IMG/VR virus record: IMGVR_UViG_2541047164_000041
Location: 1 to 16,301 of that record
Source of the DNA: a virus
Taxonomy: Duplodnaviria; Heunggongvirae; Uroviricota; Caudoviricetes
Direction: 5' to 3' (one strand)
Length of the DNA stretch: 16,301 bases
Shown here: positions 3,001 through 6,000 of the stretch, in pieces
Position numbering within the stretch: the first letter of the stretch is position 1
How the letters are laid out: each line of letters begins with the position of its first letter
Made by a program: the position numbers

Positions 3001-6000
3001 GATAGCAATCCCCTAATTTGAGGGATGTTTTATCCCTCGTTTTAGGGGATTTTCCCTCGTTTTGAGGGATGTCCCTCATTTTAGGGGAACCTCCCTCGTT
3101 TTGAGGGATGCACCATTCTGAGATGTTTTTATTTGGTCCAAACATGCCGCCTTGCTGCTTGATAATATTCATTCTGACGAGTTCTAACTTGGCTTCATTG
3201 CACCGTTTGACAGGTAACTTTGTAATCTCGCTAAGTTGAGAATCGGTGATTCTGTCCATTGGTTTATTCCACCCATAGGTTTTACGCAGAATGGCAAGCA
3301 GCACTTTAAACTGTCGCTTGGTCAGATCTGCGCCTGAATAAGCCTCAATCAGCATATTTGATAGTCTGGCGTAACCATCATCGAGATCTGCCACATTACG
3401 CTCCTGTTCGGCAAAGTTACCTCTGCCGAAGTTGAGTATTTTTGCTGTATTTGTCATAATGAATCCTGTGGATTGATCCAGTAATTCCCTCAGAATTGCA
3501 TATCAATTTGCTTAGAGTCCCCGGCGGCCACCGGGGATTTTTTCTTTGTGATTCCATCCAATGCATACTTAAAAGCCCTGCTAATCGGACTGATGTCTGA
3601 TGCCATTCCGAAAGCACACAAGACCGAAGCAATAAACCGCCAGTCCGTTCTGCTTATCTTCGATTCATGACAGCCAATCATCTTTGCCAGACCGCGCTGG
3701 GTAAGCGTTGACAGGTTGATGAGTAAATCAGTTTCAGCGCGATCAATTTCTCGCTGTGTTGGCTTGCTGTAGCTTGCTTGTGCCATTTGTTAATTTTCCT
3801 ATATTGATATTGAGTTATAGCGGCACACCCAATGGATTTGCCGCTGATGTTTGCTCACCCGGTTAGAGGTGAAAGGCCATGATGAAAGAGCGGGTACTGC
3901 TTAGGCGGCTTTGTTACTGGATGGAGGGAAAACATCATCCAAAGAACATTGGCACCCTAACTTCCTGAGGCCTTCTACGATCATTCGGCAATCGTTAAGG
4001 CCAGGAGTACGGATATTCAGCTCATAGTTGGCGATGCGGGATTGCCCCCAACCAATTGCCGAAGCTAGTACAGCTTGCGAAACTCCGATTTTTTTTCGCT
4101 GCTGGGCAATTTTGTTCATTGCGGTCTCCCTAGCATTAATCACACACCCATTACACACAATTTGTGATTAACAGTCAACCTCAATTCGTGTACAGAGTTC
4201 AATCACGTTGCGTGTTACATTTAAGGGATGAAAACGATGCATGAAATTATCGGGGAAAGGATCAAGTCCCTTAGAGAAGCTAAAGGACTTAGCCAGGCTC
4301 AATTGGCCAAGCTTTGCGGCTGGGCTGCGCCTTCACGCCTGGGGAACTACGAGTTAGGAACAAGAAAGGTTAGCGCGGATGACGCGCTGGTTCTTGGGGC
4401 GGCACTCGGCGTATCTCCGGCAAAAATAATGTTTGGCGAGGATTCAGACGCCGTATTTCGCCAATATGAATACCCGTTATTTTCTTCAGTGCAGGCCGGG
4501 CCATTTTCGGAGGTGGGAAGCTACACAGCCAGCGATGCAAAGGCATGGGTCCCAACGACCACAAAAGCCAGCGAAAAAGCTTTCTGGCTTGAGGTGAAGG
4601 GGCATTCAATGACGGCGCCTCAGGGGGTTCGTCCAAGTTTTCCGGAAGGCATGCTGATACTCGTTGATCCGGCTGAGCCGGTAGAGTCTGGGGATTTCTG
4701 CGTGGCTTCTGCAAATGGTGATTCAGAGGCAACGTTCAAGAAGTATGAGAAGGATGCAGGGGTTAGTTACCTGGTACCTTTAAACCCGGCATATAGAACC
4801 CTGGATTGCGACCATAGCTGCCGCATCATAGGCAAGGTAGTTAAGGCGCAGTGGCCTGAAGAGACGTTTGGCTGATCGGCAAGGTGTTCTGGTCGGCGCA
4901 TAGCTGGTAATCCAACTTTTCCCTGTTCTTTTTATGCAAATTAATCTAATGAAATTGAAAAGATTTTTACCTATTTTGTTGGTTCAGGAGAACATAAATG
5001 AGCGATAAACAAGAAGTTTCCTTAGCACATATCAATGATGTGCTGGAGTCCAAAAATTATATTGAAACTAATGCTGATGGGGTTGTAACCATCGGAACGG
5101 ATAACAATGGCTACGAAGTTTTTAACTTCGTTTTTCTCAATAGCACCCCTGTCATCGGCCATATGAATGGCGAAATCGCAGTGGCAGGAATGCAGCGCAC
5201 TAAGGTTGCGTCCGTGACTTTAAGTAAACAGAAGGCCTTCGATTTCTATCAGTCCTTGAAAAGCATGTTCGAGGAATAAAAGCTGATGAATGCAGCTCAA
5301 TCATCTTTGGATGAGGGAAAGCTAGTAATTGCTTACTCTGATAAGAATGGCTCTACAGTAGGGCTGGAATTTTCTTCTGTAGCATCAAGCCAAGCAACGC
5401 TCTTGATGAAAGCTTGTTCTGTTGCTGCTTCAGATAAAGAAAAACGGATTGTCACATCGGTTGTGATGGATGATACTGAGATCATTCAAACAACAAGTGA
5501 TGATGGAGGCGACGACATGGATAAGCGATTAGCAGTTCTTGAAGCTGAAGTTGCGCACATCAAGAGCAGCATGGCAGGAATTAAAGAGGATACCCGGAAA
5601 ATATCTTCTGATTCTACTGACGCCAAAAGAGACACCGCTGTACTTTTACAGAAGAGCCTGGATTTTGATGCTTCATTATCTAAGAAACCATCGGTTGACT
5701 ACTTTGAAGCTAAATTTTCCGCTTTGGAAACCAAGATAGCAGATGTAAAAGTATGGATGCTCGGGGTTCTCTTGGCCTCGCTTGCTATGCCAACTATATT
5801 TTTCCTAATAAACTTGTACCTTAAGAAAGGTCAGTAATTTAGCAAATCCGGCCACCGAGCCGGGTTTTTTATTGCCCGCCGATCACTATCAGGACAGCAC
5901 CTGCCCGCCGGTCCAAACTATTGATTAAATTACTATAATTCTTAATACAACTCCCATATCCCGCCATCTCGCCACCACCCCATTCGCTCGTTTTTCGAAC

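Follow-up and report, generated by a model that had tools for sequence, protein, structure and literature searches.

A two-gene prophage cassette in the rexAB slot, with a chimeric tail-anchored coiled-coil protein, is a candidate phage-exclusion module

A stretch of 16,301 nucleotides (nt) from a virus of the class Caudoviricetes (IMG/VR record IMGVR_UViG_2541047164_000041, positions 1 to 16,301; hereafter the window) was analyzed with a focus on two adjacent genes, here called A and B, that occupy the slot held in phage lambda by rexA and rexB, between the repressor gene cI and the leftward operators and promoter (OL/PL). The two genes form a cassette that is expressed in lysogens and is found downstream of many different repressors, and B is a chimera with a conserved translation signal at its joint. 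From this position and architecture we give about an even chance to the interpretation that A-B is a repressor-linked exclusion module with a two-part logic resembling that of Rex. The pair had already been recorded as unassigned genes replacing rexAB (EF120455), and both the slot and the general kind of element were thus known. The proteins, the modular family to which they belong and the internal start signal on a recombination joint are not described in the searchable literature.

The module (4876-5880) is 100% identical to that of VT1-Sakai, the Stx1 prophage of E. coli O157:H7, and 99.5% identical at the nucleotide level to that of phage HK544. The order in the window is cro (- strand), cI (+), A (+), B (+), a terminator, the OL/PL operators and N, the latter placed after OL/PL by annotation of the identical VT1-Sakai record; the OL operators repeat the OR operator at 4140-4172. 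In HK544, a phage with lambda immunity (EF120455), lambda-type operators and cI are followed by two 'conserved hypothetical' genes and then by Timm, i.e., A-B stands where lambda has rexAB, within flanks common to lambda. The left joint, spanning the end of cI and its immediate downstream sequence, differs little or not at all among lambda, HK544 and the window, even though the window cI differs in specificity, and its 35 nt past the cI stop show 97% identity in lambda, 434 and SfI by megablast. At the right side, a hairpin (5844-5867, with a T-run and a folding energy of -13 kcal/mol) proved in a three-way alignment to be the Timm hairpin that lambda carries after rexB; EF120455 labels it Timm, and in AP000400 it is given as the terminator that ends the pRM transcript. 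Because the joint at the end of cI and Timm are both shared with lambda, A-B can be seen as a cassette that takes the place of rexA-rexB, with a conserved joint on either side. An earlier reading of the window, made from its sequence alone (hereafter the sequence-only reading), had placed two co-directional genes in the rex slot before OL/PL, followed by a terminator, and all of this was verified directly. Its further claim that the module is more AT-rich than cI and N was also borne out (GC contents of 0.415, 0.525 and 0.502, respectively), but the contrast is only modest because the adjoining sieB gene is equally AT-rich (0.399). A-B hence displays the traits of a moron: variable cargo between the repressor and the leftward operator and N, conserved joints, a higher AT content than its neighbours and, according to the literature, expression in the lysogen. 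Accessory loci are often found in the interval from repressor to N, rexAB and bstA being examples (PMC7067206).

Expression of A-B in lysogens is documented by published data. In arrays of strain EDL933, Z3360, which corresponds to gene B by mass (19,772 Da) and by the motif MKAC44S, reached a log2 signal of 11.8 versus 5.0 for a tail gene of prophage CP-933V, and its transcript was two-fold higher in an rpoS mutant (PMC2907692). The Z3360 protein was found in a membrane-protein-enriched fraction of more than 280 kDa from strain 86-24, and was classed, from the motif MKAC44S, as an atypical lipoprotein in Table 1 of that 2011 study (PMC3210124); the C-terminal membrane helix of B accounts for the enrichment better than the lipoprotein reading does. 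The product of gene A (ECs2991) was in turn detected in a rumen-fluid proteome of strain 86-24 (PMC3936929). Co-transcription of A-B with cI is favoured because no promoter-like site was found in the gap between cI and A and a terminator follows B: a consensus scan of positions 4876-4997 yielded no sigma-70-like promoter, an independent promoter being neither shown nor excluded by this result.

Gene A has a Shine-Dalgarno sequence, AGGAG (4986-4990), 7 nt ahead of its ATG, and is left without annotation in the original VT1-Sakai record AP000400, where only B (H0053) is annotated; the Sakai genome lists the pair as ECs2991 and ECs2992. The A protein contains no membrane segment (maximum KD19 of 0.9), as previously proposed, and is predicted with low confidence to be rich in beta strands and to carry a helix at its C-terminus (AlphaFold2 (AF2) mean confidence, pLDDT, of 48). 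The final codons of A include the Shine-Dalgarno sequence of B, GAGGA (5271-5275), and the ATG of B comes only 6 nt after the A stop codon; translational coupling of the two genes is therefore likely. B has the architecture anticipated by the sequence-only reading, namely a soluble N-terminal domain (N-domain), a heptad-regular helix and one C-terminal membrane segment. The N-domain (residues ca. 10-47) is the best-modelled part of the protein (pLDDT 70-81, against 65 for the whole of B), and the helix that starts at residue 78 has hydrophobic residues at 11 of 17 a/d positions. The membrane segment (KD19 of 2.15 at residues 157-175) falls in the sole hydrophobic window of the protein (154-180), is covered by an AF2 helix spanning residues 137-182 and is followed by only 4-5 residues (KKGQ). 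Since B lacks a signal peptide and ends in this 4-residue tail, its bulk would face the cytoplasm, which makes B a putative tail-anchored protein of N-in topology. Across the B family, three alternative tail types occur, with 0-5 residues beyond the membrane helix. The annotated start of B differs among public records, which give forms of 183, 143 and 123 amino acids (aa).

A and B were compared with known families and with the proteins of the Rex and Sie (superinfection exclusion) systems. Neither matched any entry in Pfam, NCBIfam or PADLOC (PADLOC-DB 2.0.0, 2023 release), and the only PHROG matches were to families of unknown function, 12039 (for A) and 12602. Profile searches against the PDB returned weak generic coiled-coil matches for B and none for A, and a Foldseek search of the B model against BFVD gave no match at E<=0.001, the A model being too poor for a fold search; in sum, profile and structure searches retrieved nothing significant. 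A and RexA (BLASTP E=1.5) and B and RexB (E=3.2) are unrelated, the SieA protein of P22 gave no alignment with A or B at E<=100, and the SieB protein encoded in the window itself was unrelated to both in direct comparisons, B lacking the Pfam SieB domain (PF14163). Scans of B retrieved neither DUF883 (no Pfam match at E<=1) nor a holin family (Pfam, NCBIfam and PHROG), and no Rfam family lies inside the module. The earlier statement that neither protein is RexA, RexB, SieA or a member of a named system thus holds. An exhaustive profile search with A collected about 20 clusters at 50% identity; long repetitive matches to fn3 and other repeat proteins were spurious. The distant paralogy of A and B, suggested previously from a weak motif near both N-termini, was rejected: hhalign gave a probability of 0.7% with the first alignments and of 0.1% when 44 A sequences were aligned to 34 B N-domains, and the BLASTP alignment of the two proteins (E=0.088) lies in another region than the proposed motif. 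Both genes are labelled 'hypothetical protein' by PGAP in all 93 carrier genomes, and in the literature their locus tags, UniProt accessions and names in HK544 led to data on expression but to no study of function; the paper by Tai uses HK544 as a test phage and does not concern these genes.

The cassette was found at >=99% identity in 93 of 5426 complete E. coli genomes, and each of the exact A and B sequences on at least 1000 contigs. Sequence and profile searches gathered relatives of B in 171 clusters; among the matches listed with an organism name, all belong to Enterobacterales except one record labelled Pseudomonas lundensis. Carriers beyond the Stx1 prophages of O157:H7 include many prophages of Enterobacter, Klebsiella, Citrobacter, Salmonella and Serratia. 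The A-B pair is conserved across genera, with a mean column identity of 80% in the A family. A set of 75 loci with 41 distinct B relatives was used for family analysis. B is preceded on the same strand, at a distance of a few hundred nt, by a large open reading frame (ORF), which occurs in 34 distinct versions with a mean identity of only 23%, among which HTH_3 was found in 31, Peptidase_S24 in 27 and Phage_CI_repr in 7. The diversity of these 34 upstream repressor ORFs indicates that the cassette follows dozens of immunity types, Rac-like repressors included. Some Serratia, Citrobacter and Salmonella loci contain, directly 3' of B, an opposite-strand ORF of 63-65 aa that has no counterpart in the window.

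Comparison of these loci revealed that B is a chimera, in which the N-domain forms one unit with A and is uncoupled from the core made of coiled coil and anchor. In 23 paired loci, the pairwise identities of A and of the B N-domain were strongly correlated (r=0.92), as were those of coil and tail (r=0.76), whereas A or the N-domain correlated only poorly with the coil or the tail (r about 0.2). For instance, the coil of locus L011 is 96% identical to that of the window, its A and N-domain being only 39% and 23% identical, and locus L040 shows the reverse pattern. Every B with an N-domain of the window type has an A-family gene upstream (E 1e-28 to 1e-45), and B cores with other N-termini carry other partners, of which a Zn-ribbon-like, a beta-rich and a third type are listed in Table 1. 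These differing partners suggest that partner modules are interchangeable. None of them matched a known family in Pfam, NCBIfam or PADLOC, where they, and likewise a distant B relative, produced chance-level PADLOC matches only.

The joint of the chimera coincides with a putative internal initiation signal (GGAGGcgacgacATG), a Shine-Dalgarno motif followed by an in-frame ATG. In each of the 41 distinct family members, the methionine at the start of the coiled coil follows a GGAGG, GGGGG or GGGAG motif; of the 30 distinct DNA contexts, 22 combine GGAGG with a spacer of 7 nt. The mean energy of the duplex with the anti-Shine-Dalgarno sequence is -9.4 kcal/mol at the internal methionine, versus -4.5 at annotated starts, -1.7 at other internal methionines and -2.1 over all codon positions. 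Codon usage was assessed at the two glycines concerned. The codon that forms the opening triplet of the motif (codon -4) is GGA in 23 cases, GGG in 4, and never GGC or GGT; by contrast, the next one (-3), whose third base is outside the motif, is GGC, GGA and GGT in 9 cases each and GGG in one. Elsewhere in the genes of the B family, GGA makes up 28% of glycine codons. The contrast between the two codons argues for selection on the nucleotides, despite the glycine-rich peptide that they encode, and the motif is kept where this peptide shifts to LGDE, SGDE or FGDE. In Serratia loci, gene callers choose the internal ATG despite the presence of an in-frame upstream N-domain. The RNA around the internal start is as structured as shuffled sequence (z=-0.44), and no antisense promoter was found near it by consensus scan. 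The conserved signal leads to the prediction of two products, a long B of 183 aa and a short B that would retain coiled coil and anchor (106 aa, 11.8 kDa, pI 8.9). The linker of B in Serratia prophages contains an in-frame (ACA)n tract 5' of the internal Shine-Dalgarno sequence, encoding 5 threonines in locus L019 (4765-5003) and 14 in locus L056; the linker differs in length with the tract, which could vary by slippage. The internal start, the chimeric nature of B and the previous HK544 record EF120455 had been missed by the sequence-only reading.

Combined, these observations are best explained by the following mechanism. A-B would be a mobile cassette, or moron, inserted behind prophage maintenance repressors and transcribed with the repressor up to the Timm-like terminator, and its most likely role would be to keep out other phages, or to abort their infection, at the inner membrane by means of proteins unrelated to Rex. 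The core of B, cytoplasm-facing and probably oligomeric through its coiled coil, would be the effector half, anchored at its C-terminus; soluble A and the N-domain of B, inherited as one unit, would form the half in charge of specificity or control. Initiation at the signal on the joint would produce a short isoform devoid of the N-domain, and the ratio of long to short B, together with binding of A, may restrain the core until they are upset by an incoming phage; the released core would then disturb the membrane or block a membrane-associated step. The existence of the two isoforms, the binding of A to the N-domain, the anti-phage function and its mechanism are what we infer from the data above. 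Comparative support for a role in defence comes from the 34 different repressors found upstream and from the relatives of B that take the place of sieA in a P22-like phage, described below. A broader claim, which we put forward tentatively, is that A-B is the founding example of a widespread and so far unnamed family of defence systems in prophages of Enterobacterales, in which a tail-anchored coiled-coil effector would be combined with interchangeable sensors (A plus N-domain, Zn-ribbon-like or beta-rich), would control itself through two isoforms, and would be plugged in behind dozens of repressors as well as in the sieA slot of P22.

The closest parallel is RexA-RexB of lambda, which shares with A-B the slot between cI and Timm, the orientation of cI, the left joint and the terminator, and consists of a soluble and a membrane protein expressed in lysogens. 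Exclusion by RexAB acts on T4 rII and other phages and proceeds through loss of membrane potential, and exclusion by A-B is a prediction; there is no sequence similarity and no PADLOC Rex match, and RexA has 279 aa compared with 93 for A. RexB is a polytopic protein, and B a coiled-coil protein with a single-pass tail anchor and a putative internal start. Other occupants of the slot downstream of the repressor are Nun of HK022 and Stk of 933W. BstA of BTP1 resides in the same hotspot between repressor and N, is transcribed with the repressor and acts against other phages (PMC7067206). Nun and Stk are likewise transcribed with the repressor and directed against other phages. BstA, Nun and Stk are unrelated single cytoplasmic proteins, in contrast to A-B, and none of them is a membrane-anchored two-gene unit. 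The details of SieB and Esc of P22 were reportedly worked out by Ranade and Poteete in 1993. The exclusion gene sieB of P22 and lambda, with its internal product Esc, lies in the same early-left prophage region as the cassette. In P22, sieB encodes distinct peptides in one frame, switched by the antisense RNA sas (PMC13397905), and the conserved internal signal of B predicts a long and a short product of this kind. B differs from SieB in lacking the SieB domain and in the absence of a detectable antisense promoter at its internal start.

Two other explanations deserve consideration, both of which we regard as unlikely. According to the first, A-B acts in classical superinfection exclusion, with B in the inner membrane blocking a DNA-entry channel or a host factor without killing the cell, and A tuning specificity. 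In the P22-like phage UPF_BP1, a distant relative of the B core and its 94-aa upstream partner lie downstream of mnt, in the slot of P22 orf59a-sieA, and in Salmonella phage S107 another such relative (orf26) and its partner are found among the tail genes, directly before those for the tail chaperone and the tape-measure protein, a position similar to that of the entry-exclusion moron gp15 of HK97. Such placements, and the abundance of a membrane-anchored B in lysogens, speak for an entry block, and like B the SieA protein of P22 is an inner-membrane protein expressed by the prophage. With 0-5 residues after the membrane helix, however, B should expose hardly anything to the periplasm, the usual site of action of entry blockers. 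SieA moreover acts alone (PMC10883804) and shows no similarity to B, the bulk of which is predicted to be cytoplasmic.

According to the second, the cassette is an accessory locus unrelated to defence, encoding either a lysogenic-conversion factor with an envelope or stress function, in the manner of ElaB, YqjD and YgaM, or a modulator of the phage's own lysis-lysogeny switch or induction. The Rex proteins of lambda have reported roles in the transition from lysogeny to lysis, and the high constitutive expression of B, its two-fold rise in the rpoS mutant and the persistence of the cassette in prophages that also carry sieB could be understood in this way. B resembles the ElaB, YqjD and YgaM proteins (DUF883) in its cytoplasmic helical region, single C-terminal anchor and short basic tail, but these are host-encoded stress proteins with neither a partner gene nor an N-domain, and B matches neither DUF883 nor another stress family. 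Fast modular shuffling and the occupation of two exclusion-gene slots are, besides, more typical of genes engaged in an arms race.

A role in lysis control, with a holin-like B core whose long and short isoforms would act as antiholin and holin, appears very improbable. In-frame dual starts are the hallmark of the S107/S105 pair of lambda, and B is a small membrane protein that would oligomerise through its coiled coil; yet the cassette is located behind the repressor in the immunity region, outside the lysis cassette, its strong expression in uninduced lysogens would not be tolerable for a holin, the two starts of B are 77 codons apart rather than 2, and no holin family was matched. Lastly, that A and B are chance ORFs or decaying remnants, a thought invited by the missing annotation of A in the VT1-Sakai record, is refuted by the conservation of the pair across genera and of A within its family, the detection of the proteins by mass spectrometry and the number of contigs that carry them.

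Several points weigh against exclusion as the function of A-B. A and B lack homology to known defence proteins in PADLOC 2023, Pfam and NCBIfam, and the AF2 models (48 for A, 65 for B) are too weak for fold-based conclusions. The co-variation of A with the N-domain could reflect mere physical linkage of adjacent DNA, and the internal Shine-Dalgarno-like motif overlaps the conserved Gly-Gly-Asp peptide. Regarding expression, its high constitutive level also fits a role in host physiology, and the spectra from strain 86-24 were matched to an EDL933 database in one study (PMC3210124) and to Sakai-type tags and ECO57 UniProt entries in the other (PMC3936929). A defence role for A-B is still probable. 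Regarding the proposal of the sequence-only reading, a cargo module of the rex slot with a role in defence, the cassette, its slot, the lack of an assigned function and the expression in lysogens stand, and the paralogy of A and B does not.

If A-B excludes phages, a membrane-effector system made of unrelated proteins would join the class of Rex and Sie, and would help to explain patterns of phage resistance in enterohaemorrhagic E. coli, with relevance to phage therapy and to the spread of Stx phages. HK544, with A-B, and lambda, with rexAB, would then constitute a clean natural experiment under the same immunity. A conserved internal start on a recombination joint would also be a compact example of how phages shuffle sensor and effector halves, and in Stx1 prophages B is transcribed far above a prophage tail gene and yet has no assigned function.

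Table 1. Positions of the cassette, its parts and flanks, and of related or neighbouring elements. Coordinates refer to the window unless a locus (L) is given.
Feature	Position	Strand	Properties or basis
cI repressor (HTH + Peptidase_S24)	4228-4875	+	domain matches; AP000400 annotation
Left mosaic joint: final 27 nt of cI + 35 nt past stop	4849-4910	+	three-way alignment
AT-rich cI-A spacer	4876-4997	+	GC 0.361
Gene A (ECs2991)	4998-5279	+	93 aa, 10.3 kDa, pI 4.9; soluble, acidic
Gene B (ECs2992 / Z3360 / H0053)	5286-5837	+	183 aa, 19.7 kDa; tail-anchored (predicted)
B N-domain, ca. aa 1-50	5286-5435	+	two beta strands, then helix; AF2
B linker, ca. aa 51-77	5436-5516	+	acidic, Gly-rich, disordered; ends in invariant GGD
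Putative internal initiation signal of B	5505-5519	+	GGAGG (5505-5509), 7-nt spacer, in-frame ATG (5517-5519, Met78)
B coiled-coil helix, aa 78-132	5517-5681	+	followed by conserved LSKKPS break
B C-terminal transmembrane helix, ca. aa 157-178	5754-5819	+	single; only hydrophobic segment
Intrinsic terminator = right mosaic joint	5844-5875	+	homologous to lambda Timm
OL operators + PL	6095-6152	+	downstream limit of slot; operator repeat family D1; AP000400 annotation
Partner type CxxC...CxxC (Zn-ribbon-like)	L065 3583-3930; L082 3604-3942; L015 3550-3924		112-124 aa
Partner type beta-rich	L016 4578-4994; L073 3448-3900; L076 3484-3882		132-150 aa
Partner type 'ADSFGYSSFG'			91-105 aa
Opposite-strand ORF 3' of B	L003 6699-6896; L005 6552-6749; L022 5555-5746	-	63-65 aa
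ORFs of insertion sequence (IS)	13840-14493; 14490-14816	-
ALIL pseudoknot	14419-14535	-

Other features of the window were recorded. A genuine SieB homologue is encoded just past N (6639-7220, - strand; Pfam SieB E=1e-25), which gives the prophage a known exclusion gene in addition to A-B. The Rfam lambda CIII thermoregulator element was found at 7909-7967 (+; 88.5 bits), where it either precedes the cIII/kil region or overlaps it. An IS3-family element (13797-14900), with an HTH_Tnp_1 ORF, an rve-type ORF and an ALIL frameshift pseudoknot, interrupts the excisionase gene xis. Identity to the xis gene of VT1-Sakai stops after position 13797, and the window is about 1.08 kb longer than AP000400 between the module and int. 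The window is thus distinct from the AP000400 record itself and, xis being interrupted, this copy of the prophage may be excision-defective.

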